DNA of 63,472 nt, the filler included, from Welwitschia mirabilis (taxonomy: Eukaryota): NCBI GenBank assembly GCA_051453625.1. It is 6 parts of one record of this genome, joined end to end, with 100 filler letters (N's around TTAATTAATTAA, not from the genome) between each part and the next. Parts side by side here need not be neighbours in the genome. Positions count along the whole stretch, not along the records: positions 44,780 to 55,243 come from JBOZIK010000001.1; 5 more parts are not named here. The stretch is one strand, 5' to 3'. The notes under the pieces are model-generated. The model was not told where the DNA came from and did not search any database. It was given only the letters and a program-made list of their open reading frames with translations. Shown piece after piece: positions 4,086-59,468 of this stretch. Numbering within the stretch: the stretch's first letter is position 1; each line of letters begins with the position of its first letter. The position numbers and the translations under genes were made by a program.

Positions 4086-5722
4086 ATAAACACAAATCAC
4101 ATTAGGAGAAATCAAGTGAAAATCGCTAAAATATATCTCATGAAAGCTCTGAACGACCCTATAAAATAGTTTTTATGTGAAAAAATTATGAAAATATGTC
4201 TCCTCTCCTTCCACTCCAAGAGAATTAATACATACCTAATCATGCAAATAAAAAGTGCAAAACATGAGAAACATTAAAATGTGGAAAACTAGTGGGCCTC
4301 ACAAAAGGTCAAAAATAAAAGTACTCAAATTAAAACTCTAATTCAATAGAAATGTAGAGGTCATTGTACTAATTAATTTACCTATAATGACCATTATGTT
4401 TTAATTTATGGTTTTTAAGAAAATGAGGTTTAAAGTTAAAAACTTAATTCTACCTAGTAAAATACACAAATTCAGATATCTTACAAAATATACAATGAAA
4501 ATTAAATTTGTAAATACTAAATTAAAGAGCATGAAAAACTAATGATATATGTGGAAATTATAAAATAAAAGGCTAAAAAATGAGAGAAATAATAAAAAAT
4601 AACAAAGGAGAGAAAAACATACCTCATTTTAACAAGTTTTCTTAAATCTCGCAATCTGTGGTGCTAAACTCATGGGTGAAAGATCTAAAACATCAGTAGA
4701 TCCTAGTGTGATGGATGTCTCTTAAAAGAATGAATGAAAATGATATTAAAATGAAGAAAAATATGGAAATAAGGATCAAGACATATTTTTATCACATTAT
4801 TATCTCTCAAAAAAATCTCAGCTATCATCTGCCTTATTATTTGGACTACCTGATGGATGAAGAGAATTTGAAAATTTTTACAAAAATGAAAATGTCAGCC
4901 AAACAAGTTAGGATCAGATATCAGCATGAAGGTATTAGATTTTATCAAAAATCATAAAAGATATGGAATGATGAAGAATTGTAATGAATAAGCCTAAGGA
5001 ATAAGAAAAACTCTAAGGAATCAAAAGATGGGGTGATGAAAATGTATTAATATAATAAAGCCAGACAAATAAAACTAAAAAATTATGCTCAAACTAAAAA
5101 ATAATCATAAAATATATAGAACTCTAAAAGACTCAAAAAACATCATAAAAATCATAAAGAACATCATCTAATCAAAATAGAGTATCATCTAGTCAAAATG
5201 CTAAAATAAAATTAACTTTTATTGATAAAACAACATAAGTAAAAATGAAAATAATAAGGAAACTACTAAATGATAAGGTGCTAAAAATGATGATGAAAAA
5301 GTACAGAAATAAATTTGAAATAATAAACCAAACAACTAAATAAAAATAGAATGAAATTAGATAACTAAGAACATAAAGAAGATTATACACTTATCTTAAA
5401 TTCTAACCTTAGCAAACTCCCTTGGAAGATATCATAAAGTAACTTAATTAAAGATGCATGATAAAATATATTGACTTTATAAAGTTCTACTCGAAAATGC
5501 AGTGATTATGATAAAATCAAAGATTAGATGCTAAAAATAATAAGTGATAAGATCAAAAGCTACTTAGAAATGAATGTACTTGCTCAAACCCCAAAATATA
5601 TTTGAATTCTCAAAAGTAAAATGATTACGTGAAAATACTACAAGTTTAAAAAACAAGAAATGCCTCTAATAACATTAGAAAAACCACTGATTCCATATCA
5701 TTAAATTTTTATTACTACTTTT

Positions 5723-5870
5723 CATGATGAGGGGAATGCAACCACAGTCAGAGAAGTAAGAACCCTCAAAGCATGACCAACTGATCTTCTAGTGAAGTTC
5801 CCATTGTTATCAACATTGCCAAAGCTTCCTTTCAAAAAAATTTAACCTAATGTAGTAGGACATCATGATG
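5723..5870 (-). other. Conserved non-coding module of the pol-3' spacer (copy 1), candidate structured RNA
   Basis: Element-sense CATGATGTCCTAC...GGGAACTTCACTAGAAGATCAGTTGGTCATGCTT...GTGGTTGCATTCCCCTCATCATG, shared with five other copies in the window. Confidence 0.7.
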
Positions 5871-11452: not shown

Positions 11453-12285
11453 TAGGCCTCACTTAGCATTTGTCTGTCCCTGATAAAGTAAGTGAGTAAT
11501 AAGTTATAAGCCAACTGACAAAAAGAAAATTAAAACATGTATATCATTTAGAATTAAGAGTAAAACATGTGAAATACATCTATGAAAAAACATAAGTAAA
11601 ATTGATGTATATTATAAATTATTAAGTTTAACATCATATAAAAGTTACATAAGTTATGAAGAAAAGGTAAAGTAGGGTATGAATTTCATGATCATAAGAT
11701 TAAGTGACATAAGAGGATATAAAAAGTGATATTATTAAAAGAAAGGAGAACATTAATTATATCATGTAAAAGGGTAGTTAAGGCATAGGTGAATTTGATT
11801 TAATGTATAAGAATCAAGTGATGAAAGATGTAACAAGTAGACTAGAAAATNNNNNNNNNNNNNNNNNNNNNNNNNNNNNNNNNNNNNNNNNNNNNNNNNN
11901 NNNNNNNNNNNNNNNNNNNNNNNNNNNNNNNNNNNNNNNNNNNNNNNNNNNNNNNNNNNNNNNNNNNNNNNNNNNNNNNNNNNNNNNNNNNNNNNNNNNN
12001 NNNNNNNNNNNNNNNNNNNNNNNNNNNNNNNNNNNNNNNNNNNNNNNNNNNNNNNNNNNNNNNNNNNNNNNNNNNNNNNNNNNNNNNNNNNNNATAATAT
12101 CTAGTGATTATATTTAGTAAGGTATCAAGTTATGTTTATACTATGATTAAATCCCTCTTCAGATATGATAACCATAGTACTTTGATAAGATATCATCTAA
12201 TAATTAATATACTCATATGCTCATGAAGTCTGTGCCTCAGAGTGATGGAAGTTTTAGTCAATGAAGTGATGAATAACACTATTCA

Positions 12286-12450
12286 TCATGATAAGGTGAG
12301 TTCAACCACTGCCAAGAGAATAAGGACCTATAAGCCAAAGCTAGATCATGACCAACTAATCCTTTGATGGAGTTATAGCTATCATATCATACTACCAAAG
12401 GCCCTTCTCGGGAAAATTTGCCATGGTATGCTTGTGATAGTACATCATGG
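12286..12450 (-). other. Conserved non-coding module (copy 2, divergent, with an extended internal hairpin)
   Basis: Element-sense CCATGATGTACTATC...CCCGAGAAGGGCCTTTGGTAG...AGTTGGTCATGATCTAGCTTTGGCTTATAGGTCCTTATTCTCTTGGCAGTGGTTGAACTCACCTTATCATG. Confidence 0.65.
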
Positions 12451-21010: not shown

Positions 21011-22699
21011 TAATTAGTCATAAGCATAGAGCACATCACATGAGAACAAGTGAAAATTTCTAATATGTGTCTCATGGAAGCTCTAAATGATTCCATAAAT
21101 TGGTTTTTATGTGTAAAAGTCATGAAAATATCTCCAGCTCCTTCCTTCCCCTCGTATTAAAAGAATCAATACATCTTGTATTGCCTAATCATGTAAGAAA
21201 AAAGTATGAAACATGAGATAAATTGACATGTATAAAAATAGTGGACCCCACAAAATGTTAAAAATGAAAGTAATTAAATAAAAAATCTAATTGGTATAAA
21301 TGTATAGCATGTCATACTAATAAATTTACATATAAGGACCACTAAATTTTGACTTATAGTTTTTAAGAAAAAGAGGTTTAAAGTTAAAAACCTAATTGTA
21401 CCTCATAAAATACATAAACTCAGATATCTCATCAAATACATGGTAAAAATCAAGTCCATAAGTACCAAATTGAAAAGCACCAAAAAATAAGTGATATATG
21501 TGTAAACTATGTGCTAAAAGGCTAAAAAATAAGAGAAAAAGTAAAAAATAATAAGGGGAAAAAACATACCTAATTTTAATACATTGACTCAAATCTTGCA
21601 ATCTGGGACACTAAACTTATGGGTGAAACATTTAAGACATCAGTGGGCTTAAGAATGATGATTATCTCTCAACGAAATAGATGGAAGCAATGTAAGAATT
21701 TAAAAAATTATGGAAAAGTAGGTTAGGTTACAATTTTATCACACTGTCGTCTGATCATATCATTCAGATAATATCTCTAGAATGACCATCAAAAAAATCT
21801 CATTTGTCATCTGCCTTATTATCTGGATAACATGATGGATGATTGGACTTTTAAAAATTTTAGGAGAAAAAAAGATATTAGTCGAATAAGTTAGGCTCAG
21901 ATATTAACATGAAGGTATCAGAATTTATTAGAAAATCTAAAAGATAATAAATGATGAAAAATCATGATGAATTTGTGTTGGGAATGAGAAAAAATCCAAA
22001 GAATTGAAATATAGGATGNNNNNNNNNNNNNNNNNNNNNNNNNNNNNNNNNNNNNNNNNNNNNNNNNNNNNNNNNNNNNNNNNNNNNNNNNNNNNNNNNN
22101 NNNNNNNNNNNNNNNNNNNNNNNNNNNNNNNNNNNNNNATTATTTAATTAAAATATAATATGATCTAGCTAAAATGCTAAAACAAAATCAACTTTTATTG
22201 ATAAAAAATAGGAGTGAAAATGAAAATAGTAATAAGAAAACTACCAAATATAGGATCTTAAAAATGATGATGAAAAAGTATGGAAATGACTTTGAAATAA
22301 TAAACCAGACAATTAAAGAAAAACTAAATGAAAATGAACAACTAAGGACATGAAAAAGATAGCATACCTACTCTAAATTCTAACCTAGAAAAACCCTTAA
22401 AAACATCATAAATCTAGTTCAATAAAGATGCATAAGAAAACATATCGGTTCTATAAAGTTTCATTTAAAAAGGTAGTGATTATGATGACACCAAATATCA
22501 AATGCTTAAAATAATGAATGATAAAATCAAAATATACTTAAAAATGAACTCACTCACCTTCTCATAATTTAAAACATACTTAAATCCTTAAAATAGAAAT
22601 GAGCATATAAGAATACTAAGAGTTTAGGAAATAAGAAATGCCTCTGATGATACCAAGAACATCATTGATCCCATAGCCTTAAAGTTTTATTACTGCCTT

Positions 22700-22849
22700 C
22701 CATAATGAGAGGAGTGCAACCATAGTCAAAGAAGTATGGACTCACAAAGTATGACTAACTAACCCCCCAGTGAAGTTCCCACAGCTACCAACATTGCCAA
22801 AAGTTTCTTTCAAAAACATTTATCCTAATGTGGTAGGACATCATGATGG
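22700..22849 (-). other. Conserved non-coding module (copy 3)
   Basis: Element-sense CATGATGTCCTACC...GGTAGCTGTGGGAACTTCACTGGGGGGTTAGTTAGTCAT...ATGGTTGCACTCCTCTCATTATGG. Confidence 0.7.
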
Positions 22850-38759: not shown

Positions 38760-41700
38760 AAAAAATCTCTTTTATTAGAAATGGACCTTTCCACTTAGAA
38801 ATTAGTTTTCTTAAAAATAAATATAATCGTGAGTTATAGAGCAAAAGTAGTTCTTCTTCTTTAAACATTTTTCTAAGGATGTTTTGATCATGCAATTTTT
38901 TAATCCTTTATTTATTGATTTTCATATTTTCATAGGCATTATTCCTGATTTCATCTAACTCATTAAATTGTATGACCCTTTTCTTCCTTACTATCTTCAT
39001 ATCCAAGTTCATGTTTTTAATAGCCTAATACACTTTGCATTCAAGTTCGATGAGTAAATGACAAGATTTTTCATAGACTAAGCTGGATAAGAACATTCAT
39101 AAAGGTGTCTTATAAGCTATTTGATAGGCTCATAAAATGTGATTAAGCTCAAAATACCAATCTTTTCTAGTATAATTTACTACCTTTTATTAAATGTTTT
39201 TAATTTCTCTATTTTTAACTTCAATTTAACTATTAGTTTGGGGATGGTAAGGTGTGGAACTTTATGAATGATCNNNNNNNNNNNNNNNNNNNNNNNNNNN
39301 NNNNNNNNNNNNNNNNNNNNNNNNNNNNNNNNNNNNNNNNNNNNNNNNNNNNNNNNNNNNNNNNNNNNNNNNNTCTTGAAAATAAATATAATCGTGAGTT
39401 ATAGAGTAAAAGTAGATCTCCTTCTTTAAACATTTTCCTAAGGATGTTTTGATCATGTAATTTTTTAATCCTTTATTTATTGATTTTCATGTTTTCATAG
39501 GAGTTATTCCTGATTTCATCTAACTCATTAAATTTTATGGCCCTTTTCTTTCTTACTATCTTCATATTCAAGTTCATGTTTTTAATCGCCTAATACACCT
39601 TGTATTCAAGTTCGATGAGTAAATGACAAGATTTTCCATAGACTAAGCTAGATAAGAACATTTCTAAAGTGTCTTATAAGCTATATAATAGGCTCATAAA
39701 ATGTGATTAAGCTTAAAATACCAATCTTTTCTAGAATAATTTACTACCTTTTATTAAATGTTTTTAATTTCTCTATTTTTAACCTCAACTTGACTATTAG
39801 TTTGGGGATGGTAAGGTATGCAACTTTATGAATGATCTCATACTTAGAAAAAAGGTTTTTAAAAATTCTATTATGAAAGTGCATTTCACTATCACTAATG
39901 AAAACTCAAGGATAACCAAATCGTGTTAAGATATTTTCTTTAAATAATTTCACCATTGTTTGAGCATTGTTAGATTGATACATGTATGCTTCTACCCATT
40001 TAGAAATGTAATTGATACAAATAAGAATATATTCATGTGTATTTGAGGAAGGATATGGGCCTTGAAAGTTAATACCAAATATTAAAGGGTTTAATGATGA
40101 CAATGGGATTTATAGGTATCATATGCTTTCATGAAAGACTACTAAGTTTTTGACAATTTTCACAAGTTTTAAAATATAGATAGGAGTCCTTAAAAATAGA
40201 TGATCAATAAAAACTAGATTGAAGAATTTTTGTGATTGTTTTATTGGCAGAATAATAGCCACTATAAGCTTCAAAATGGAAATGCTTAATAATGTTAGGT
40301 TTTAAATTAAGGGACATATTAATAAATGATTTGATCTAGGTAAGACTTAAACAGATAAGGATCATCTTAAAAGAAGTATTTATCCTAGCTCAAGAATATT
40401 TTTCTATTGTTAAAGGTCTAGTGAGAGGAAATAATCTTGGAAACTAAGTGTTTTGGATTATTTGCAATTCAAAATATTTTTGAAACTGAGAAGAGGCATT
40501 TGAAAAGATACAATTGATGAAAGGAATGTTTGCATGTTTTCTAGTTATTAATGAAATGTGGTCTGCAACTATGTTATCAAAGTTCTTTTTGTTCTTAATT
40601 TCTAAATCAAACTCCTATAAAAGCAAGATCCATCTAATTAATATAAGCTTTAAACCATTTTTAGTAAATAAGTATTTAAGAACTGATTGATATATGTAGA
40701 TAATTATCTTAAAGGCTAATAGATATTACCTTAATTTTTCTAAGGAAAATACTATGATAAGGAGCTCATTTTCTATGATACTATAGTTTAGTTAAGTGTT
40801 ACTTAGAGTTTTACTAGCACAATAAATTATAGTTGGTTTTATATCTATTATTTATTTTAAAATAGCATAATCACTGGTATCACACATAAGTTCAACAAGT
40901 AACTTCCAATTAGGTGGTTAAATGATAAGAGTTGAGGTAAGTTTTTCCTTAATTTTATCAAAAGCATGTTGATACTTGCAGATCCAATTGAAAGAGGTGT
41001 CTTTGTCTAGTAGGTCATACAACAATTTGGGGATGTTTCTAAAGTATTTAATGAATCTCTTGTAATATCTTACATGCCCTAAAAGGGATCTAATATATTT
41101 TTACTTTTGTAGAGTAAGCAGTTGTGTGATTAGAGAAACTTTCATAGGTTTTACTTAAATTTCTTCTGAAGAGATAATGTGTGCTAATAGTATGGCTTTA
41201 CTAATCATGAAATGATATTTTTTCCAATTAAGAAATAAAGAGTTTTTCTATACATCGCATAAGAACAAGATCTAAGTTATGAAGACAATGGTTGAAAGAT
41301 GCCCCATAGATATAGAAATCATCCATAAATATTTCAATTCATGAGTCTAATAAGTCAAAAAAACATTCTAATCATGAAATCTTAAAATGTTATAGGCATA
41401 TTGCATAACCCAAAAGGCATTCTTTTATAAGTAAATATTTCATATAGATCCTCAGGATCTATTTCTATTTGGTTATACCTTGAATACCTATCTAAAAAGT
41501 AGTAAATAGGATATCCTGTAAGTTGTTCAAAAATTTCATTAGAAAATAAAAGAGGAAAATTATCCTTTTTCACAATAGCATTTAGTTTTCTATAATCTAT
41601 ACATATTCTTCATTTGACTATAGGTCTAGTGGGGATTTGTTTTTTGTATTCATTTAGTACTAGGGTAANNNNNNNNNNNNNNNNNNNNNNNNNNNNNNNN

Positions 41701-42314
41701 NNNNNNNNNNNNNNNNNNNNNNNNNNNNNNNNNNNNNNNNNNNNNNNNNNNNNNNNNNNNNNNNNNNNCAGCATTTAGTTTTCTATAATCTATACACATT
41801 CTTCATTTGACTATAGGTTTAGTGGGGATGTGTTTTTTGTTTTCATTTAGTACTAGGGTAATTCTAAATTTATTTGCTACTATTTTAGTTGAACTTATCC
41901 ATTTATTATCTATGATGGAGTAAATAATTTCATTGTCTAAGAGTTTGATTACTTCATTCTTTCCTATCGCTTTCAAGGTTAGTTTTACCCTTTACTAGGA
42001 TTCTATGGATGGATTAGCATTTTTTTAAGTAAATGTAATGCATGAAAATGCTATGATCAATAAACCTAATGACAAAGAGGGTTCATCCTATTACTTACCT
42101 ATATTTCTTTAAGAGGTTTAGCAACTCCATTTTTTGGGATGTTGATAAGGAAGAATTTATTACTACTAATAAAATGAAATTTTTTCCTACTAAAGAATAT
42201 TTGAGATCTTTTATAAGATGCTTAATTTTAATACAAGATTCATCTTAAGTGATATTCATCCTCTTGAGAAAATTCTAAGGCATCATTCTTATGGCAATAA
42301 GTGGAGGATTCTTA
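38760..42314 (-). pseudogene. pol: Decayed pol of a more distant Athila-type element: RT ~41100-42060, RNase H ~40540-40950, integrase ~38760-40400 (tail duplicated across a gap)
   Basis: ORF 41382-41573 (KKDNFPL...YYFLDRYSRYNQI...RMPFGLCN), IFMDDF at ~41320, ORF 39906-40103 (FGINFQGPYPSS...YISKWVEA...ILTRFGYP), ORF 39233-39433 (FKEGDLLLLYNSRL). Confidence 0.9.
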
Positions 42315-45116: not shown

Positions 45117-46654
45117 AGTTTTACCATCAACTTATGTGTATTTGATAGGGTATTTTGAGTTGTTTTGCAGGTGAATTAATAGATAAATTCTTAATCCTTA
45201 TGATAATTAAAAACTAAGATGAAGAGAATGAAAACATGAAGTTTCCAAATAAATTACAAGTATTTCATGTAGATATGGATAAATTGTATTTTTGGATAAT
45301 AGTCCCACAAACAATAAGCAATCAGGCTGACTTAAGATTGAGAAAATACCACTGTCTATCTCATCATCCAGNNNNNNNNNNNNNNNNNNNNNNNNNNNNN
45401 NNNNNNNNNNNNNNNNNNNNNNNNNNNNNNNNNNNNNNNNNNNNNNNNNNNNNNNNNNNNNNNNNNNNNNNNNNNNNNNNNNNNNNNNNNNNNNNNNNNN
45501 NNNNNNNNNNNNNNNNNNNNNNNNNNNNNNNNNNNNNNNNNNNNNNNNNNNNNNNNNNNNNNNNNNNNNNNNNNNNNNNNNNNNNNNNNNNNNNNNNNNN
45601 NNNNNNNNNNNNNNNNNNNNNNNNNNNNNNNNNNNNNNNNNNNNNNNNNNNNNNNNNNNNNNNNNNNNNNNNNNNNNNNNNNNNNNNNNNNNNNNNNNNN
45701 NNNNNNNNNNNNNNNNNNNNNNNNNNNNNNNNNNNNNNNNNNNNNNNNNNNNNNNNNNNNNNNNNNNNNNNNNNNNNNNNNNNNNNNNNNNNNNNNNNNN
45801 NNNNNNNNNNNNNNNNNNNNNNNNNNNNNNNNNNNNNNNNNNNNNNNNNNNNNNNNNNNNNNNNNNNNNNNNNNNNNNNNNNNNNNNNNNNNNNNNNNNN
45901 NNNNNNNNNNNNNNNNNNNNNNNNNNNNNNNNNNNNNNNNNNNNNNNNNNNNNNNNNNNNNNNNNNNTTTACCAAATGTTTTCTCGAGTTGTCGCCACTT
46001 CTTTGCAACTTTACTTTGCATGTCAACTAGGATTTCTCCTTCACTTCTCTGTCAGTTTCCCTTTCTTTTTTGTCTATAAATAAAGGTCTCCCCCTCGATC
46101 CCTAATCATCTTCTATAGTACCTGACATTCTTGTAACAAGAGATGTTAGAATCAAAGAACTATCTTGTAATCCAAAGAGACATTACCTTGGTGTTGAGTA
46201 GTGTATCCTCCATTGAGGAATGAATACTTTGTGATACAGATGTCTTTTATTCTTTTTAATATGAATTATCCNNNNNNNNNNNNNNNNNNNNNNNNNNNNN
46301 NNNNNNNNNNNNNNNNNNNNNNNNNNNNNNNNNNNNNNNNNNNNNNNNNNNNNNNNNNNNNNNNNNNNNNNNNNNNNNNNNNNNNNNNNNNNNNNNNNNN
46401 NNNNNNNNNNNNNNNNNNNNNNNNNNNNNNNNNNNNNNNNNNNNNNNNNNNNNNNNNNNNNNNNNNNNNNNNNNNNNNNNNNNNNNNNNNNNNNNNNNNN
46501 NNNNNNNNNNNNNNNNNNNNNNNNNNNNNNNNNNNNNNNNNNNNNNNNNNNNNNNNNNNNNNNNNNNNNNAGCATACTATGTTTATGCATCTTATTTGTA
46601 ATTAACAAGATTTAGATCAAGACATGAAACATTGCATAAATTCACACTGCAACA
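45117..46654 (+). repeat. 5' LTR (two internal gaps; TATA-like CTATAAATAAAGG at ~46074)
   Basis: Ends TTGCATAAATTCACACTGCAACA, immediately before the PBS. Confidence 0.88.
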
Positions 46655-46657
46655 AAT

Positions 46658-46675
46658 TGGTGTTGTTGCCAGAGA
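46658..46675 (+). promoter_or_regulatory. Primer-binding site, decayed tRNA-Asp type
   Basis: TGGTGTTGTTGCCAGAGA is the Athila PBS TGGCGCCGTTGCCGGGGA after C>T and G>A changes; 3 nt after the LTR end. Confidence 0.85.
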
Positions 46676-47189
46676 AGGCTATTTGGAAATTGAGAGTTGT
46701 TGTTGCTTTGGTCAATATTCTAGATGTTTGTTGTAGTAGTGGTGTACTAGTATTCTGTAATTTTTTTGTTTTAGTTTTAATTTTTAGTAACCTCTGATGT
46801 CTCCTTCGTCGTCCAGACGTCATAGTCAGACGACTATCCCTTTTTAGCTTTCCCTCTTTCTGTGGTTATCTATGTTTTTTGTCTTTGTCATCCAAGATAT
46901 CATCCGAATGACATACAAGATAATGCTTCAGCCCTAAGACCAAATGGTTAAGATTGGAAAAAGTAAAAAATATCAAAGAGAGAAATAGTTCATTGCAGAA
47001 AATATCAGAAAATTTTGCTAAATTTTTAATTTGAAAATCAAAACAACCCAAGTACGCAAACTTTAAAATTTCTTAAAATTTATAGAAGAGTTTGATTTTA
47101 ATTTTGAAAAATCTAATACCATTCAACCACTTACTAAAAACAACCTATCTCTTTGAATACACCCCTTATCGTTAGAACCATTACTCCTA

Positions 47190-49395
47190 CTCCTCATGTG
47201 ACTCTAAGAGATCTCATAGCAAATAAATGACTTGAAATACAAAACCCTTTTGACTTACCTCCTAGCGATGATGTGGAACTTAAAAACTTAAATGCTTACC
47301 CTGCCTTTCAAGGAGAACTTGATGAAAATCCCCTATAACACATCGTTGAAATTGAACAACTCATTCTTACTTCCGATGATGGTAAAAAGTATATAACTGA
47401 TAGAACCTACATGGTCATTTTTCCTATCACATTACAAGATCAGGCTAAAATTTGGCTTAGAAAAATCCCTTATCAGAGCTTAAAATCTTGAAGTCAAGTT
47501 CAAGAAGCCTTTATCAAAAGATTTAAGAATGAAACCACCATCCGGAAATGTAAGAAAGAAGTCACAAACTTCTAATAACTACCTAATGAATACTACGCCT
47601 TTGCCTATGAGAGATTTTTTGTGGCTTTACACTCAAATACTTTAGATGCCTTTTCTGAAATAGAATTAATAGACTATTTTTATAGTGGGTTAAATAGTTA
47701 CATCAAGAAACTTGTAGATTTCTCTTATAGAGGTAACCTCCTAAATAAAACTTTAGAAGATTCTTAGAAAATATTAGAAGATTTAGTCAAAGTAAGTCAA
47801 ACTTGGCCAAAACCCTTATTTAAAGAAAATAGAATAGTAGGCCAAATCATCAAAGACCTTAAAAAAGTCAAACACGAGAAAGCTACAATCAAAATAGAAT
47901 ATGAACTAACTAGCGGTATTAAGGATTTTACTTCTACTTTAGAGAAATACACCTAGATAATTCTTAATGCTAAAGTGGCAACTGAGAAAATTCAAATTAT
48001 TATTCCAACTTGTAATTTGTGCAAGGATAGTTATTAGGTAAGGAAAGAGTATCCTTTACTTTCTACATGTAAAGAGAGAATTTATGAAGAAGTTCATGCT
48101 TTGAACCAAGGACCTTTCAACTACACTCAAACTTATAATCAAAGACAAGTCCCCAATTACAATTTTCAAGTACATTATCTTAACTCCCAATCGTTTTGAA
48201 ATAGATTTGATCATCAAAACTTTCAATCCAGCCATCTAAATGAATTGGCAAGCCCTTCCAACTCCCAGAACCATAGTTATCCTCTTAGGAATTCTATTGA
48301 GGAGTTGAGAAAAACTTAAGAAAAGACAAATGCAAACATAGAAAATTTTTTAAACATTTTACAATAAACCATTCTTGCCAATCAAAGACCAAAAAGGACC
48401 CTTGCCACTTAATTTTTACTAAATCCTAACAAAGTATGAAAAGATTATAAGGTGGTGATAAGGAGTGGAAATGACATAACTCCCTCTACTCATAAGGCTT
48501 CAACTTTTTAAAATGACAAGAACGATGAGGAAGAGGACATAGAAATCTTAGAAAATTATTCCTTCCCTTTTTCACTTCACAACAAAAAGAAAGATTAATC
48601 CAAAAAGAAACCTACTACCCCATGGCTTAATAGGCTTAATGAAAACCCTATCTTTAATGATTATTTGAAAGCCTTAATGTAAAACATAAGCATTAACTTA
48701 TCTTTTTGGAAAATTTGCAAGAAATCCTAAATACTCTAAGATATAAAAAGACCTAATAAGAAGAAAACAAAAATGAACTATCCCTAGTAAAGTCTTCCTA
48801 GCTCAATTCATTAGCAACTTAGTTTTCAAGAAGTGTCCAAAATTTAAAGATCCAGGGGTAGCAATTATTAGTATCACTTTAGAGGAAAATCGAAGAATTA
48901 AAAAAGCCTTGATAGATAGGAGCTAGTGTTAATATCATGCCCTTGTACATTTATAAATGTTTAGGATTGAAAGAATGAATAGAACCTACATAAATTATCT
49001 TAGAGTTAGCTAATACATCTATAAAAATATCCTTACATATAATTAAGGACTTAGTTATTCAGATCGAGAAAGCTTTCTACCCCATAGATGTAGTTGTTTT
49101 AGAAGTTAAGCATCCAAATTGATATCTTCTACTTCTAGATAGAGCTTTCTATGTAACTGTCCATTGCATCATAGACACTAGAACTAGATTAATGAAATGT
49201 CACTTCGAAAATAAACGATTTTCAATATAAGTATTTGATGCAGCTGAAAAAGATTTAAAAAATGATTTAGATTTAGAAGAAGATATAAAACATAGCCTAT
49301 ATTTACAGAACCATCCAAACCTAAAACAAATTGTAAAAGAATAAATCATAAAAGTTATGGGTGGAAAATGGTGTGTACACATAGAAAATGATTAA
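47190..49395 (+). pseudogene. gag: Decayed gag-protease with a vestigial RT stub
   Basis: FQGELDENP, FPITLQDQAKIWL and DYFYSGLN (gag); KFKDPG and ALID..ASVNIMP (protease); then NLKQIVKE*IIKVMGGKWCVHIEND*. Confidence 0.88.
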
Positions 49396-49813
49396 AATGA
49401 CATGAGTATTTTTAGATACAACTATAAACATAGTAGAAGCATTTGTTTTCTACCTAAGTTATTTTTTAGTCTACTCTTTAGGTTAAATATTGTAAATTTA
49501 CTTGATCATCTTTTAACTTAACTTGTATATTACTTTATAAAGTATTATAATTAGGCATTTATAAGTGGTAATATTGGATTCACCCAATCTTGAGACATTC
49601 CCATGTTTGTATACTGTACTTATAGGAAGATACCTTATTTCTTGTGTTGTTTTTTTCAATGATGGGTAAATCCTAAGTTATCAAGGAGTGTTGTTTTTTT
49701 GTATTTTACTTTACTTATTCATCTTAGTCTTTCTTAAGTGTATTATCTTGTGGGAATTATCTTTTATTTAATATAAAAAAAGGACAAAAAGAAAAAAAAA
49801 GAAAAGTAAAAAG

Positions 49814-49954
49814 TATGATGTCCTACTGTAAGTACACTAGGCAAATATTTCTGAGAGGAGCCTTTGGCAGTGTAATATGGTAGCTGTGGGAACTCCACTG
49901 GGGGATCAGTTGGTCATGCTTCGTGGGTTCTTACTCCTCTGATAGTGGTCGCAC
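49814..49954 (+). other. Conserved non-coding module (copy 4, cut by gap)
   Basis: TATGATGTCCTAC...CTGAGAGGAGCCTTTGGCAG...GGTAGCTGTGGGAACTCCACTGGGGGATCAGTTGGTCATGCTTCGTGGGTTCTTACTCCTCTGATAGTGGTCGCAC. Confidence 0.75.
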
Positions 49955-50318
49955 NNNNNNNNNNNNNNNNNNNNNNNNNNNNNNNNNNNNNNNNNNNNNN
50001 NNNNNNNNNNNNNNNNNNNNNNNNNNNNNNNNNNNNNNNNNNNNNNNNNNNNNNTGATTAGTTTTATACTTAAGCATTTATAAGTGGTAAGATTGGATTA
50101 TCACAATCTTGAGACATTCCCATGTCTATGGATTGTATTTACAAGAATATATGTTGTTTCTTATGTTGTTTTTTTTGTGGTTAAGTCTTAAGTTATCGAG
50201 GAGTATTCTTTTCTGTCATTTACTTTACTTATTCACCTTAGTCTTTCTTAAGTGTGTGATCCTATTGGAATTATCTTTTATATTTAAAAAAAAAGAAAGA
50301 AAGAAAAAAATAAAAAAG

Positions 50319-50473
50319 TATGATGTCCTACCGTAAGTACACTGAGGTAAATATTTCCGAGAGGAGCCTTTGGCAGTATAATATGGTAGCTGTGGGAACT
50401 CTACTGGGGGTCAGTTGGCAATGCTTCATGGGTCCTTACTCCTGTGACAGTGGTTGCACTCCTCTCATCATGG
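50319..50473 (+). other. Conserved non-coding module (copy 5, complete)
   Basis: Same motif order as the other copies, ending GTGGTTGCACTCCTCTCATCATGG. Confidence 0.75.
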
Positions 50474-51869
50474 CAAAAGAAATATAACTTTTAGTATTCC
50501 CACTTGATCATTTTACTTTTAGAGATTTCGGTGAATTTGTAGGTAGTAATAGATGAGTCCATTTCTAAGTATCTTTTGACTTTAACCTTCATTGTTCTAC
50601 ATACTTGGAATCTTGGATATCACCATAATTACTGCCTTTTTGAATAAACTTTATTAAGTTAATACATTTTGTCATACATTTTTACTCAAGTAATGTTATA
50701 AAGTTTTCCTTTAGAGTTTGCTATGTTAGTACTTAAAATAGGTAAATAATCTTCTTTTTGTTCTTTGCATCTATTTCCCCTCTATTTTTCTTCTGTTTTC
50801 ATGTCTACTATTTTCTAGTCATTTACATTTTTTTCTTTTTAGAACTTTACTCATTTAGTAGTTTTCATTCTAGTCTTTCTTGTAATTTTTTCAACCTAGA
50901 TAGTATGTTTTCATTTTGTCATAGTTTTTACTTTTCTATGTGCTTTTTAGCTCTATTTTTTCCAATACTGTTACTTTCACGGTTCTATCTGAGCCTAACC
51001 TTCTTGGTTGATACTTCTTTTTTAAAACTCCTTTTTGTAAACAGTCATCCATGTTATCATCTGGATGACATGGAGGACGACGAACTAAATTTTTTTAATA
51101 GTCATCTTCGCACTGATGTCCAAATGACACTATTGGATAATAGTGTGTTGTAACTACAATCAAAACCCTTTTTCCTCATTTTTCACTTGTTTCCTCATAT
51201 TTTTCCTTCATTCTTTTGAGAGAGCAGAACCCTTCTAGCTACTACTGATATTTTGAAACTTGTGCCACCTAATTTTGTTGCTAGAATTGCGAGTTCTTAC
51301 CACATTTGTAAAAATGAGGTATGTTTCTCTCTCCTCCTGTTTTTTCATTTTTTTCCTCTCGTCTTTCAGCCTTTCGATGCATAGTTTTTATGTATATTAT
51401 TCAATTTTGTGCGATCTACATTTTGGAACTTATGGATCTAATTTTCACCACGTATTTTTGAGTTATGATCATTTTTGTATTTTACGAGGAATTCTCCTAT
51501 TTTTACCTTTCACACTCGTTTTCTCACAAACCATAAGTTGAATCGTAGTGGTTCTTTAGGGAAAATTACTCAGTGTGATGTACTCTATGACTTTACTAGA
51601 TTATATTTTTCATTTGAGTACTTTGAATTTTTACCTCTCATGGGACAATCTACATATGCAACGTTTCGATTTTCTTCATTTTTCTCCATTTCTTTTCTTG
51701 TAATTAGGTAATTGGGGATGCATTGCACATTTTCGGAGGGAACAGAACATATTTCCACTATTTTTGATTTTTTTTCCGATTATCAGATCATTTATTATGC
51801 ATCCATGCAACGTTTTTATCATGTTTATCTGGTTTTGCATGCGAGTTTTGTGTTTACGGTTGAGTAGGC

Positions 51870-53100
51870 CATGTACACGCAGAGCTAGAAAAACATAGGC
51901 TTCATCTGAATTAGTAGAGTAGGTAGTAGGCCCTTTGGTTGAGATTGAGATATAGCATGAGGAGCCCGTACACCCACCACATTGACATAGACGATCCTTG
52001 AGCATACAGATAGCTAGCATTTGTGTTGAGAGATACTTTAGTAATTTCATGAGCCATCTAGAGCCTGAGGTTAATTAGAGACTGACAGAGTTATAACTCA
52101 GATGGATCATAGATGCGCATGATACATACTATGTTTTTGAGATGAAAGAATTTTACGACACCATGTATATCGAGAGGTGACTAGATGTTCATGATCAGCT
52201 ATAGGATTACATTATTGCATACATTCGAGACCACAAGATTGCTATCCTCCCATCTTACATCACAATCATCATAGATCTTAGAGGTCTTAGGAGTTTACAC
52301 ATTTATTTAGCTAGTGAGACTGAGGAGCGTTGAGCTTACAATGCCATTTTAGATATTCCAGCTAACATGACTACTGATCGATGAGGGATAAATGTTACCC
52401 AGCTAACCGCCGCATATAGAGTTTTATATAGAGGACTAATTCATAACATCAGTTCATTATACTATGACAGTCATGCTATGGTCGCATATCTATAGATTCT
52501 GGTAGCTTTCCATTAGGGATCTATGATTGAGACATGTCATTTATAGACATGTGAATATCCATGCCTCCTCTCCACTTTGTTCAGATGATTCAGGATCCCA
52601 GAGCCTATAGGTGAGCAATGTTTCTTACATATACAGACTTTTACTCATTATTTATAGGATATGGATATACAGGTACCAGGAGAGGCAGAGAGCCTTAGGA
52701 ATAAAGACCTACAATTGGAGCATTATTAGAATAGATCTAGGCCCTTCTGGCTGAGAGTACCAAGACCCTCAAAGGATTTATAAATTAGAAGATGTAGACA
52801 TTAAAGTAGTGGATCACATCCTTTAAGTAAAGAGTTGAGTAGCAGATAGCATCTATAAAGAGAAGAACATAACACATAGAGGATTAGATCGTGGACATGC
52901 ATCAGCATATTATTTGCATGTAGCAGAATGTGACTGTAGATCTTCTAGAGTTTGTACATGTCTAGGGAGATGAGACGGTCTGATCTATTGTAGCATCCCT
53001 GGATGAACGTCTCCTCACAGATCATGATCATCCTTCTTCCTCTCCCCCTGCTCCTATACCAGTTCCTGATCCAGGATTTACCATGCGTAGACAAGGGAAG
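51870..53100 (+). pseudogene. Decayed extra ('env-like', putative plant transposon protein-like) ORF; 3' half repeated at 53451-54105
   Basis: FEMKEFYDTM...IIAYIRDHKIAILPSYITIIIDL resembles the V.EFY.N....S.VRG..I...P..I...L pattern of Athila ORF2-type proteins; located between the spacer and the PPT. Confidence 0.7.
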
Positions 53101-54650
53101 TAATTCTACATTGTATTTTGTATCTCTTCTTTCTACACGTTTTGTTTTAAAAAAAAACTCTTGTTATTATATATAGATCTATCATTTTGCTTCAATATGA
53201 TGTATGTTTCCATCTAATTTTTATATCAATATCTTGTAATTTTTATGATGAGGATTGCATGTCATTTCAAATACATCTTTTTATTTGACTGTTTATCACA
53301 ATGGGGGGCTACTTGTTATGATTTTCTAGCTAATTATTAGTATTATTTAANNNNNNNNNNNNNNNNNNNNNNNNNNNNNNNNNNNNNNNNNNNNNNNNNN
53401 NNNNNNNNNNNNNNNNNNNNNNNNNNNNNNNNNNNNNNNNNNNNNNNNNNTTTATAGATTTTGGCAGCTTTTTATCAGAGGGAGTAGATGGACTTATCTA
53501 CCTTCATTTGGAGGTGACTTAGATCTATGATTGAGACATGCCATTTACTGACACTTGGTTATCCATGCCTCCTCTCTGCCCTATTCAGACAATTCAGGAT
53601 CCTAGAGCCTATAGGTAAGCAACGTTTCTCACATATATAGACTTATACTCGTTATTTATAGGATATGGATATACAAATACCAGGAGAGGCAGAGAAACCT
53701 TAGGCATAGAGACCTATAGTTAGAGCATCATTAGAGTAGAGCCAGGTCCTTGTGTCTAAGAGTACTAAGATCCTCAAAGGATTTATGGATCAAAAGATGC
53801 AGATATTAGAGCAGCAGATCACATCCTTTAAGTAAAGAGTTGAGCAGAAGATAGCATCTATAGGGAAGAGAACACAGTACATAGAGGATCAGGTCATGGA
53901 CATGCATTAGCGTATTATCTCCATGCAGCAAAATATGACTGTAGATCTTTCAGAGTCAGTACCTGTCTAGAGAGATAAGACGGTCCAATCTATTATAGCA
54001 TCTTTGGATGAACGTCTCCCCATAGATCATGATCATCCTCCTTCCTCTCCCCCTACTCCTGTACTAGTTCCTGACCCAGAATTTATCATGCATAGATGAG
54101 GGGAGTGATCCTACATTGTATTTTGTACCTCTCCTTTCTATACTTTTTGTATTAAAAAACTCTTGTTATTATATTTAAACCTATCATTTTACTTTAGCAT
54201 GGTGTAAGCTTCTGTTTGATTATTTTTACATGTTATCTTTTGATTTTTACAATGAGGATTGCATTTTTTTTAGCACATCTTTTTATTTGACCATTTATCA
54301 TAGTGGGGGACTGCTTGTTATGATTTTATAGCTAATTATTAGTATTATTTAATTAATGAAAAAATTAATTTTTTTCACAGGTTCCAGTTTTTGAAGATCT
54401 TTTGATAAACCTGTCATCCCCATTATCGTTCAGATGATAGTAATAGATGACCAACTTTTGATGCATTAGCAGGTATATCTCATCAGTTTTGAACTTTTTA
54501 GACATTCGGTGTATTGTCAGCTTATGTTGCATATCTTTCTCAGATGCTTTCTTTAGATATCCTAGCTATTTTTATTGTTTAAAAGTTGGCTTGCAAATGT
54601 GGTTTACCACTTAGTTTTATTAGGGACTGATAAGGCTAAGTGAGAGACTA

Positions 54651-55243
54651 TGTTGTGCCACTAACTTATGTGTATTTGATAGGGTATTCTGAGTTATTTT
54701 GTAGGTGAATTAATAGATAAATACCTAATCTTTATGATAATCAAGAACAGAAATGAAGAGAATAAAAACATACAGTTTCCAAATAAATTACAAGTATTTC
54801 ATGTAAATATGAATAAATTGTATTTTTGATAATGACTCCTATAAATAATAAGCAATCAGGCTAACTTAAAATTGAGAAAATACCGCTGTCTATCTCATTG
54901 TTCTGATGTCGGTAGTGGATGATATCTCAAACAGGGCGATAATAAGTTTACATGTAGTTGATGAGCAGTTAGACTAGGAGCTAAATAGATATCTCATTGT
55001 CAGTCTTCATTGTCTCATATCTTGTCTGGATGACTCAAAGAATGACACTATTCTCTCACAATTTTACTGAATGTTTTTCCAAGTTGTCGCACTTCTTCGA
55101 CTTTACTTTGCATGTCAGCTAGGGTTTCTCCTCTACTTCTCTGTCAGTTTCCCTTCCTTTTTCTTTAATAAATAAAGGTCTCCCCCTCGATTTCTAATCA
55201 TCCTTGACAGTACCTGATATTCTCGTGATAAAATATCTTAGGA
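54651..55243 (+). repeat. 3' LTR (truncated by the spacer), preceded by a PPT at ~54622-54650
   Basis: AGGGACTGATAAGGCTAAGTGAGAGACTA|TGTTGTGCCAC; matches the 5' LTR. Confidence 0.88.
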
Positions 55244-56870: not shown

Positions 56871-58245
56871 TTTCTCTTAGCTTTTTCATTTGGAAGCCAT
56901 TATGACGTCATTTAATTATCTTTTAAACATGACTTATGTATTTATTTCTATGACTAATCTTTAACTTGGGCATTTTATAGTGGTAATATTAGATTCACCC
57001 AATCTTAAGACATTCACACATCTATGAACTTTAGTTTAAAGGAAGATGCTTTATTTTTTATGTCTTTCTTAATGGTGAAAAAGTCTTAGATTGTTTAAGA
57101 ATGTTATTTTCTATCTTTTATCTTATTACTTAACTTTTGTATTTTGGAGTTTTTGATCATGTGAAATGTTTCAGTTGTGCATCANNNNNNNNNNNNNNNN
57201 NNNNNNNNNNNNNNNNNNNNNNNNNNNNNNNNNNNNNNNNNNNNNNNNNNNNNNNNNNNNNNNNNNNNNNNNNNNNNNNNNNNNTAATTGGTTTTTATCC
57301 TTATGAACTTGTATACAGTAAAGTCTGTGTTTTACTAATTAATGTTTGTTATAACTCTTATCATTCTACATATTAACTTAATCTTGAAGATTTAGAAGAA
57401 AATCTTAAAACTTATTTAGCTCAGTTAGATCATTTAGATGAAAAATTAACTTGAGCTATTCATCATTCACTTATCCATAAAGTCCAAAATAAATTCAAGC
57501 ATGATAAAAAATTGATTCATAAAAACTTTTAACTTGGTCTATTAGTTTTGTTATACAACACTAGGGTACATATTTTACATAACAAGTTGACCTCAAAATG
57601 ATTAGATCCTTACTTTATTGAGAAAGTACATTCTAATGGCTCTATTAAAATTTTTGACTTAATCACTAAAGAAATTTATAAAGCTAATGGACAAAGGTTG
57701 AAAATATATGAGTAACCTTCTGATCTAAAACATGATAAAAGTGCTAGCATTAGAGGTTCCCTTCAATAAGAAGGACTTCTTTTCTATTACTATTTGAAGT
57801 TTCTCTTAGCTTTATCATTTAGAGGCCATTATGATATCACTTGATTATCTTTTAAACATGACTTATGTACTTATTTCTATGACTAATCTTTAAATTGGGT
57901 ATTTTATAGTGGTAAGATTAGATTCACCCAATCTTAAGACATTCACACATCTATGAACTTTAGTTTAAAGGAAGATGCTTATTTTTTATATCTTTCTTAA
58001 TGGTGAAAAATTCTTAGATTGTTTAAGGATGTTCTTTTCTATCTTTTATTTTATTACTTCACCTTTGTATTTTAGAGTATTTGATCATGTGAAATGTTTT
58101 AGTTGTGCATTAAAAAAAAATAAAATAAAATAAGACCATGATGTTTTATATTTGAGATAGCTCAAAAACATGGTTACCATNNNNNNNNNNNNNNNNNNNN
58201 NNNNNNNNNNNNNNNNNNNNNNNNNNNNNNNNNNNNNNNNNNNNN

Positions 58246-58329
58246 TGTAGGACCTCCACTGGGAGGTCAGTTAGCCATGCTTCATGGGACCTTACTTCTT
58301 TGACTGTGGTTGCACTCCCCTCATCATGG
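58246..58329 (+). other. Conserved non-coding module (copy 6, 5' part lost in gap)
   Basis: TGTAGGACCTCCACTGGGAGGTCAGTTAGCCATGCTTCATGGGACCTTACTTCTTTGACTGTGGTTGCACTCCCCTCATCATGG. Confidence 0.72.
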
Positions 58330-59468
58330 ATAGTTAGATAATAAAATAATAAAAAATTAGAGGATACAAGATCAGTGGTATTTCTGATCTCATCAGAGGT
58401 ATTGCTTGTTTCCCAAACTCTTAGTCTTTCCACATCATCACTTTATTTCTAAGGATTTAGGTGTTTATTTTGAGATGTAGGTAAGAAATTTCATTTTTGA
58501 GTAATTCTTTGATCTTATCACTTATTATTTATTTGATTTGATTTTTAGCATCGTCATAACCACTACCTTCTCAAATGAAACTTTTTATACATCAAGTCAT
58601 GCATTTTAAAATCAAGTAATGTTATGATTTCTTCCACAAGAGACTACTAGGTTAAAATCTAGGTAGGTAGGCTATATTCTTTATGTTGCCTTATGTCCAT
58701 TCTTTCTTTTTTTTTTTTTTTTGGTTGTTATTAGCTAGTTATTTCAAAGTCATTTCCATATTTTCTCATCATTTTAGAACCTTAGCATTTAATGGTTTCC
58801 TCATCTACTTTTCAATAAAGAATCCATTTCTTATTTAGATGAGTTTTCTTAATTATTTTGTGATGTTTATTTTTAGTTTTTTGGAAGCTCTACATACTAC
58901 TCTTAATAATTTTTATCATGACACATTTGTTGTGCATCCATGAATCTGCTTCATCCTAATTAGCACATTTTTATTAACTACTCTTTCCATGCTTGTTAGA
59001 ATATTTCACACATCTCTATTTTTCAAATTTGGTATTTCTATATTTAGCTTTATATATAATTCATCAATTGTCCAAATTAAAAAAAAAAACCATCTATTAT
59101 CTGCCTTCTCATTCCTGTCTTAAAAAAAAATCCATCATCTGCCTTCTCATCCCTATTTGCTTTCATTACTTCACTAGCCAATGCAGGACGTATTATTTTT
59201 CTCAAGAATGATAGGACTAATTTTTTTGTCTCATTTTCTTAATTTTTTGAGTTATTTTAAAGCTTTTATGAGACATAATTTTTTGAAATTTTTACTTCAT
59301 ACACATGATGCATTACATGTTATTTGACAATGTGATGTATTTGAGACTATTTATGAGCATGTTTTATAATTTCCAAATTGATTTTTTTTAAAAACAACAA
59401 TTTGTCTCACAATTATAGTTGTTCACCTAGTTTTCATTAGGGACTAGCAAAGGCTAAGTGAGAGGCTA

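Follow-up and report, generated by a model that had tools for sequence, protein, structure and literature searches.

In retrotransposons of the Athila type an extra open reading frame (ORF) lies behind pol, and both the expression of this ORF and the role of the long non-coding linker are poorly understood. Accessible excerpts of published work report that ATHILA ORF2/env is made from a spliced subgenomic RNA (PMC7197481), that splice acceptors are predicted upstream of the env-like ORF in both Athila and BAGY-2 (PMC2829016, PMC7264820), and that an architecture of gag and ORF2 without pol is common for Arabidopsis Athila (PMC2410132). Here we analysed a stretch of 63,472 nt from Welwitschia mirabilis (GCA_051453625.1), referred to as the window, in which decayed Athila-type elements carry a GC-rich block of about 150 nt between pol and the extra ORF. 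The block is non-coding, has changed more slowly than its surroundings and is partly conserved as a hairpin. Tentatively, we rank first among its possible roles that of a cis element that governs how the downstream ATHILA-ORF1-like ORF is expressed.

A first-pass annotation of this DNA had listed six copies of the block, named E, E2, D, A, C and B here (Table 1). An nhmmer profile of the aligned copies gives these six matches in the window and no further ones at E ≤ 10, and a covariance model recovers the identical six. All of them lie in element sense, as had been noted. The distance from the last pol homology to the block, determined by tblastn, is 473 nt in B, about 476 nt in A and about 464 nt in D, whereby the value for A was obtained by collinearity with B. 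The reference was P0013, a 1909-aa polyprotein of Arabidopsis suecica, which was retrieved with a reverse transcriptase (RT) fragment of the window as the only named match (45% identity). Since 20 residues of P0013 remain unaligned, the true spacing is about 400 nt; the annotated placement a few hundred nt after pol thus holds for A, B and D, at about 400-470 nt. The GC content of the block is 0.38-0.51 vs 0.2-0.3 in the flanks.

The derivation of the six copies from five elements is less secure than their existence, as the copies at 49814 and 50319 are not safely independent across an N gap. E and E2 are located on opposite sides of the gap 49955-50054 in a 415-nt overlap of 83% identity, and differ within the block by 11 transitions and 2 transversions. 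The same pattern is seen at seven 100-N gaps of the window (26984-27083, 31383-31482, 36440-36539, 39274-39373, 49955-50054, 53351-53450 and 57185-57284), with 380-840 nt repeated across the gap at 83-93.5% identity. These repeats look like unmerged contig overlaps or mis-joined repeat copies, and short tandem duplications apparent in the window are therefore not trustworthy. Hence E and E2 are treated as not independent and the tandem pair as insecure. They may be one locus, or two paralogues mis-joined by the scaffolder.

The block does not encode a protein. Its indels follow the lineages: deletions of 6 nt and 4 nt are common to A and B, and C has an 11-nt insertion which is present in some expressed relatives and absent from others. 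Because of these indels no frame survives, and tblastx scores of the block are alike in all three frames. Two 1-nt indels private to E create its open frame of 57 codons; in the frames matching it the other copies contain 1-4 stops, and most copies have stops in every frame. Among proteins of 31-100 aa, the size range searched, no candidate shares words with the 57-aa ORF of E. Pfam finds nothing at the block in 213 stop-free fragments of at least 45 aa from the window, in which only remnants of RT and RNase H are recognised (RVT_1 and RT_RNaseH at 24794-25815 on the minus strand). The post-pol ORFs of 26 Athila-like loci from elsewhere, introduced below, give no tblastn match in the window at E ≤ 0.01. 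On these grounds the earlier statement that the copies share no ORF is borne out.

The block does not match a known RNA family either, in agreement with the first reading of the sequence. Rfam gives no match at the gathering threshold over the whole window and none at E ≤ 10 on 49700-50700, decayed copies being the only ones tested. The suggestion of a self-cleaving RNA or a nuclease-resistant fold found no evidence and no matching Rfam family. A tRNA or SINE (short interspersed element) origin was rejected with zero tRNA genes found by ARAGORN. A C/D or H/ACA small nucleolar RNA had come to mind owing to ATGATG and CTGA motifs; the box positions do not fit, and Rfam is silent here as well.

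The strongest signal in the block is its constraint. Raw identity amounts to 0.70-0.77 in the block vs 0.46-0.66 in most flank windows; two flank windows, at 0.75-0.78, equal the block. Moreover, long flanks are alignable in several pairs, and D vs A aligns continuously from -2826 to +644 at 70-72%. The block had been described as alignable where its flanks are not, which fails for many flank pairs, but it does stand out once transversions are split off. Transitions occur at 0.14-0.23 per site inside and outside the block alike, as expected because of methylation-driven decay after insertion. Transversions, on the other hand, amount to 0.036-0.077 per site in the block vs 0.10-0.27 in all flank segments. 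Conservation no higher than in the flanking spacer had been named beforehand as a refuting outcome; the transversion rate of the block is lower than that of every flank segment.

Coding regions of the same elements give a second standard. For the same pairs the integrase shows 0.075-0.130 transversions per site, and the RT core, compared between C and A or B, shows 0.146-0.153, where the block has 0.057-0.071. One-sided Fisher tests yield p=0.011, 0.0011, 0.026 and 0.0053 in four of the six comparisons; in the closely related A-B pair the difference is not significant (p=0.25 vs RT, 0.09 vs integrase). The direction is consistent: the block evolved slower than integrase while the lineages were active, and in C vs A/B also slower than the RT core. 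As a separate observation, an AT-rich conserved patch is present in the spacer between pol and block at about 50060-50180 (+), matching -340 to -200 of the other copies. Its identity is 0.72-0.77 with 0.146 transversions, and it contains a short inverted repeat.

The first-pass annotation regarded the block as a candidate structured RNA and proposed five helices. Compared with dinucleotide shuffles, the whole block folds no better in any of five copies (z -0.01, -0.14, -0.31, -0.50, +0.34, +0.10), and the predicted folds differ from copy to copy. The RNAalifold consensus has an energy of -10.95 kcal/mol with a covariation term of +0.13 kcal/mol. In the five proposed helices 88.3% of cells are paired vs 86.1% in shuffles (15/500). 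Double changes are found in 4 of their 26 pairs and in 11 of 45 RNAalifold pairs; shuffles reach the observed counts in 28/500 (the five helices) and 46/500 trials. All of them are of the transition type G:C<->A:U, and no pair shows compensatory changes involving a transversion. Such double changes are not diagnostic because methylation decay yields the same, so the caveat already attached to the annotation, that decay mimics covariation, was well placed. The weakest of the five helices is GAGAGGAG/CTCCTCTC with 78.8% of cells paired. About 87% of the reads of a DNA run, and thus most genomic copies, have C at 50463, opposite an A; this helix is not supported.

The 5' part behaves differently. 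Folded alone, the 5' 62 nt form one identical long hairpin in E, E2, B and C (z -1.89, -1.22, -1.73, -1.98), termed hairpin 1; copy A fails to form it, its basal helix being lost through G>A changes. In hairpin 1 92.9% of cells are paired (9/500 shuffles reach this). The 6-nt (columns 16-21) and 4-nt (columns 63-66) deletions of A and B sit opposite each other in its stem, and in the minimum-energy fold of E2 itself, three of the four bases lost on the 3' side are partners of bases lost on the 5' side. When two deletions of these sizes are placed at random, 2.0% (E2 fold) and 3.5% (E fold) of the placements achieve as much; the test was picked with the data already in view and relies on a single event. 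The reverse complement of hairpin 1 also folds (z -0.97, -0.43, -1.33, +1.06, -3.93): three copies fold better in sense, whereas copy C folds far better in antisense (-3.93 vs -1.98). Thus the inverted repeat is established, not its strand.

Of the proposed pairings, the closing ATGATG/CATCAT pair fares best, being kept in every complete copy with 100% of cells paired (20/20). It offers no informative variation; the only two changes are C>U, which retain G.U pairs in the sense strand. For the 3' 90 nt no fold signal was obtained (z +0.08, -0.79, +0.05, +1.19, +0.87). Support for the structured RNA of the annotation is confined to the 62-nt hairpin in four of five copies, with no fold signal in the whole block or its 3' 90 nt, in tests that the decay of the copies weakens.

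Relatives of these elements are expressed. Reads of three RNA runs from two studies and of one DNA run, all with the same species label, were mapped on 50055-53350 at 80% likeness. The RNA runs yielded 156, 59 and 35 mapped reads, nearly all of them less than 90% alike. In run X14 the depth reaches 28.2x and 23.2x on two block bins vs 0.6-7.7x in adjoining bins; X17 and X18 show the same pattern. A lower plateau covers the ORF2 region, and the spacer patch at 50060-50180 also takes relatives' RNA reads (about 7.7x in X14). The peak on the block mainly reflects mapping, the sequence outside it being too dissimilar to take up reads of relatives. Overhangs of the reads are homologous and less decayed, with CpGs where the window copies have TG or CA. 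This CpG richness is seen only in overhangs of 30 letters, the window copies having a CpG count of 0-2. Some overhangs carry the 11-nt insertion of C, and beyond the block they look like the genomic sequence flanking C and D. Younger related elements are thus transcribed through the block. In the DNA run the depth is about 3,000-5,700x on the block vs about 9,800-12,200x at 50605-50824. Its majority differs from E within the block, and because four of the five best-supported differences restore C or G (50334, 50378, 50402, 50463), E is decayed relative to the family.

We regard the host elements as Athila-type because of their pol order, long terminal repeat (LTR) pieces, the weak similarity of the downstream ORF and the ORFs of intact loci, along with a candidate tRNA-Asp-type primer-binding site (PBS). 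P0013 and four further polyprotein fragments find collinear protease, RT, RNase H and integrase by tblastn in A, B and a sixth element (38761-42232); this order on one polyprotein is expected of an Athila element of Ty3/gypsy. The decayed candidate PBS of E lies upstream of gag at the expected place; 6/100 shuffles give at least 2 matches, and the motif was taken from the available part of PMC2844528. PBS regions of the other elements lie beneath N gaps.

Element E merits a closer look. Judged by its gene content it is a pol-less derivative with gag and ORF2. The annotated retention of the block without RT, RNase H and integrase holds for E, but the missing pol of C may reflect the N gaps 12990-13089 and 13368-13467. 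Downstream of the block, tblastx of E vs A covers 158 aa at 44% identity with 149 bits in one frame vs 38 in another. With X at stops, this extra ORF is a weak match to PF20167 (E=0.0032; 17.8 bits against a cut-off of 45). The post-pol ORFs of three intact loci (L019, L060, L074) match PF03078 (ATHILA ORF-1) at 1e-29 and PF20167 at 20-23 bits, and an active sunflower Athila is reported, in the accessible part of PMC11728184, to combine the same family with ATHILA ORF-1 in its post-pol ORF. BLASTP of the ORF2 piece of E against the ORF of L019 was not significant. Further downstream of the block in E, the DNA depth climbs to about 12,000x at 50715-50824, within 50495-50824; a junction from 50824 to 51704, which omits 879 nt, is spanned by 273 DNA reads, and 9,830 continue beyond 50824 into a T-rich sequence. 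Most genomic relatives differ from E here, and this region of E therefore contains an insertion or a variant segment.

The distribution of the block was evaluated in 80 Athila-like loci (611,907 nt of plant DNA in metagenome contigs), which were found by RT-integrase alignment and share 51-74% aa identity with the query. The integrase C-terminus is included in 40 of these loci, and 26 extend 1.2 kb or more past pol. Over the 80 loci, nhmmer gives no match at E ≤ 1; with filters off the best match has E=6 on AT-rich noise, and relaxed blastn yields nothing under E=0.027. The covariance model, run on 38 of the 80 loci, scores 17.8 bits at best (E=0.14), on the wrong strand and in the wrong place. 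Metagenome contigs searched with a 23-nt degenerate block pattern, which is met by 4/5 window copies reaching there, gave 0 matches. Viral contigs gave 0 matches with a block pattern, and of 7 pattern matches in viral contigs obtained via protein P0008 none was confirmed. As the block is absent from the 80 other Athila-like loci, it is specific to one family group of Athila-type elements, found in one plant.

Being non-coding and constrained at the nucleotide level above both its flanks and integrase, the block is most naturally read as cis-acting. This part of the earlier proposal of a cis-acting RNA element fits the data, while the fold tests do not support a domain spanning the whole block. 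Control of the downstream ORF is ranked first because of the junction position, the constraint, the motifs at the 3' end and the literature on spliced ORF2 RNA; its link to splicing and expression is one that we infer. The block lies where the gag-pol module meets the 3' module with the extra ORF in one group of Athila-clade families. It may be seen as three parts: hairpin 1 of 62 nt, about 90 nt kept in sequence rather than in fold, and the bracketing CATGATG...CATCATG repeat. It would act on the element's own transcript and set how the downstream ORF is expressed, possibly as a tuned 3' splice-site/leader module for the subgenomic RNA reported for Athila, the use of which hairpin 1 might modulate. 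In line with this, the block lies upstream of a frame-specifically conserved ORF and is retained in the pol-less E. The AG of the candidate splice-site module lies 4-9 nt past the block in 5/5 copies reaching there.

Several points weigh against this explanation. The branch-point, pyrimidine and AG motifs are short, were picked by eye and are unscored. The change from GC-rich to AT-rich sequence is the reverse of the usual intron-exon composition in plants, and a uniform conservation over 150 nt exceeds the needs of a splice site. In the three RNA runs, neither splice junctions nor read starts or ends are reported around the block, among 35-156 RNA reads per run on a stretch that lacks the 5' leader and has flanks too diverged for reads of relatives to map. 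Reads exiting the block at 50471-50473 run into C/D-like flank, and those molecules are hence unspliced there. Both mate orientations are equally frequent, so the libraries do not give the transcribed strand. The constraint statistics draw on 5 decayed copies that are related to each other, and each block comparison counts 3-10 transversions. Outside the window, the linkers of L060 and L068/L074 do not align though their pol is 69-70% identical, the extra ORF of L019 begins on the pol stop codon, and nothing block-like is seen in other Athila-like families.

Table 1. Copies of the block, its parts and accompanying features of element E. Positions refer to the window.
Feature	Position	Strand	nhmmer profile match	Remarks
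Block copy E	50319..50475	+	50320-50474(+)	nhmmer E=1.6e-50, covariance model 172.8 bits; least decayed full copy, GC 0.48
Block copy E2	49814..49954	+	49815-49954(+)	3' end cut by N gap 49955-50054; 90.6% identical to E within block
Block copy D	58246..58331	+	58246-58330(+)	3' 85 nt only; 5' half beneath Ns 58181-58245
Block copy A	5720..5868	-	5867-5721(-)	
Block copy B	22698..22846	-	22845-22699(-)	distance to pol counted from residue 1889 of 1909 (23318)
Block copy C	12284..12450	-	12449-12286(-)	most divergent; 11-nt insertion
Hairpin 1	50328..50389	+		columns 11-72 of alignment A2; imperfect inverted repeat of ~62 nt, 24 predicted pairs
Terminal repeat, 5' arm	50320..50325	+		ATGATG; CATGATG in A, B, C
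Terminal repeat, 3' arm	50466..50472	+		CATCATG
Candidate 3' splice-site module	50445..50479	+		pyrimidine-rich end, TGAC branch-point-like motif 50445-50448, first downstream AG 50478-50479
A-rich, nearly pure purine tract	50286..50318	+		directly upstream of block; also in E2 and C
Candidate tRNA-Asp-type PBS of E, decayed	46658..46676	+		2 mismatches to transition-tolerant pattern (FIDEL paper)
Protease-region homology of E	48726..49239	+		tblastn; followed by block, no RT, RNase H or integrase between
Extra ORF of E, decayed, Transposase_32/ATHILA-ORF1-like	52037..52510	+		tblastx vs A; weak Pfam PF20167
3' LTR start of E	54652..54898	+		88% identical to 45118-45364

Of the competing explanations, an autonomous structured RNA domain would have the 7-bp terminal helix close hairpin 1 and a second sub-domain, and would serve export, packaging/dimerisation or internal initiation. 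Constraint at nearly every position is typical of RNA elements, the terminal pairing occurs in the minimum-energy fold of all four complete copies, with its two C>U changes retaining G.U in the sense strand, hairpin 1 is backed by co-deletion and z-scores, and the 11-nt indel falls within a predicted loop. However, whole-block z-scores range from -0.5 to +0.34 in 5/5 copies with differing topologies, the 3' half ranges from -0.8 to +1.2, the RNAalifold covariation term (+0.13) gives no help, the double changes are all transition pairs in numbers that shuffles also reach, copy C prefers the antisense hairpin and Rfam has no match. The decay of the copies weakens all of these tests. We consider such a domain unlikely and do not think that the block is a free-standing structured RNA.

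It is also doubtful that the block represents a DNA regulatory island, i.e. a CpG-rich, dyad-symmetric internal promoter or protein-binding site for the downstream ORF or an antisense transcript, independent of the LTR. The expressed relatives with several CpGs suggest an active form that is CpG-rich in AT-rich surroundings, and the dyad symmetry of hairpin 1 and of the terminal repeat is effective on both strands. Moreover, for Sireviruses palindromic motifs that form CpG islands 5' of env are described, and taken as support for an internal promoter, in the accessible text of PMC2829016. Nevertheless, no pile-up of read starts is seen at or after the block, and RNA depth drops directly downstream of it, although flank divergence could hide reads there. 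Promoters are usually conserved in patches and not over 150 contiguous bases, and the block is a single unit in contrast to the repeated boxes of Sireviruses.

Quite unlikely, in our estimate, is a new family-specific RNA domain, made up of the hairpin and a sequence-constrained platform, with a protein of the host or the element as binding partner, that would decide between unspliced RNA and mRNA for the extra ORF. The unspliced transcript would then serve packaging and gag-pol translation and, if true, the bound domain would correspond in plants to the transport or response elements of retroviruses.

A captured or inserted fragment that merely hitch-hikes, has no function of its own and was spread late by recombination, is improbable. 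Related linkers do carry captured genes (a Lysine_decarbox ORF and the NABP ORF of the L003 group, see below), recombination between distant Athila families is documented (PMC2410132), and the block has 7-bp terminal inverted repeats. Against this, the adjoining flanks are far more diverged, so that the exchanged tract would have to equal exactly the block in every lineage; the DNA depth shows no excess confined to the block, no target-site duplication is found at its ends, and Rfam, tRNA and protein searches are all without a match. Finally, a decayed coding segment, whether a short upstream ORF from ATGATG or the initial exon or N-terminal part of the extra ORF, is highly improbable: the block begins with two ATGs, copy E has an open frame of 57 codons and in L019 pol is directly followed by the extra ORF, whose GC-rich part is coding, but the frame of E is due to its private indels, other copies contain stops, no frame is left intact by the lineage indels of 4 nt and 11 nt, tblastx favours none of the frames and neither the proteins of 31-100 aa nor the 26 post-pol ORFs provide a counterpart.

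The linkers of the other loci are of interest on their own. Some are GC-rich after pol, and in L019 the GC-rich part is coding. This locus harbours an intact 480-aa ATHILA ORF-1 gene (L019:7257-8696, +) which starts on the pol stop codon with an ATGA overlap. An ORF at L003:5087-5524 (+), with similar ones in L006, L012, L024, L025 and L049, spans 129-169 aa from stop to stop and begins about 140-380 nt after pol. The L003 ORF resembles the cysteine-rich nucleic-acid-binding proteins of the carlavirus type (Pfam Viral_NABP 8e-7, Carla_C4 1.8e-5). Such a virus-like gene in a retrotransposon linker is worth separate attention. A LOG-type Lysine_decarbox ORF (PF03641, 4.8e-32) is located at L004:10776-11438 (+), about 930-1050 nt after pol, and is also found in L003, L011, L012, L023, L025, L027, L056 and L072. 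Apparently it is a captured fragment of a host gene.

The purine tract upstream of the block deserves mention, too. A and B have AT-rich sequence plus about 45 extra nt in its place, and the tract is unlike the purine runs before the 3' LTRs of E or A. Absent from A and B and unlike the 3' polypurine tract (PPT), it does not qualify as a second (central) one. In L019 an A-rich tract directly after pol encodes a lysine-rich stretch, hence A-rich tracts behind pol can be coding and need not be polypurine primers. The PPT core TTGGGG, as given for Athila-like elements in the available part of PMC2844528, does not occur in the block; TTGGGGG is found twice in the window, at chance level. We also considered the block start as a mimic of a PPT/LTR start and rejected it, as the identity of 10/13 to the start of the LTR of E was judged chance.

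The surroundings of the copies are AT-rich (window GC per kb 0.13-0.38) and interrupted by 43 runs of N, the content being heavily decayed Ty3/gypsy elements with a handful of stop-free frames of at least 120 aa outside the N runs. The sixth Ty3/gypsy element (38761-42232, -) is nearer to P0013 from RT to integrase, with up to 57% identity. It has no block according to the nhmmer profile and no GC-rich island after pol, and probably belongs to a different family.

Whichever way the extra ORF is controlled, a slow-changing segment of 150 nt in the linker provides a handle for locating the splice sites or internal starts of this family, for testing whether genomic vs subgenomic RNA is controlled in cis, and for recognising decayed or pol-less family members in annotation. 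Its reach is limited to one family group in one plant, with no copy in the 80 other Athila-like loci.

A conserved GC-rich block behind pol of Athila was not found described in our full-text literature searches. Wright & Voytas 2002 reportedly mention motifs in the post-pol non-coding region, and a similar feature of Athila4/Calypso may already be described. The available portion of the ATHILAfinder preprint gives LTR-internal junction motifs as the only lineage signatures, and that of the Retand survey lists tandem repeats and antisense ORFs in the linker but no such block (PMC11963269). The boxes of Sireviruses (Ty1/copia) are likewise conserved, non-coding, GC/CpG-rich, dyad-symmetric and located upstream of an env-like ORF, as far as the accessible text of PMC2829016 describes them. 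They differ in belonging to another superfamily and in being short high-copy motifs with a CGG-CCG core, whereas the block is a single 150-nt unit. A CpG island of the Sirevirus type is not apparent in the window: no tandem or internal repeat is reported at the block, the copies of which have 0-2 CpGs. The extra PPT in the pol-env linker of Athila4 and Calypso, described in the same portion of PMC2829016, is comparable to the purine tract upstream of the block in E, E2 and C. It differs in that the window tract is missing in A and B and is unlike the run next to the 3' LTR.

In retroviruses, the constitutive transport element and the Rev-responsive element are cis-acting RNAs in the 3' half of the genome. 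The block is analogous as a conserved non-coding segment near env in an element with unspliced and spliced RNAs, but it has neither a sequence or Rfam relationship to them nor evidence for a fold of the whole block. Compared with the predicted acceptor region of Athila/BAGY-2, the block is longer, more uniformly conserved and has the 62-nt inverted repeat; no junction reads were seen here. As far as the accessible descriptions of that region go, the block agrees with it in the clade and in the place between pol and the extra ORF, and its 3' edge has a pyrimidine-rich run, a motif resembling a branch point and an AG.

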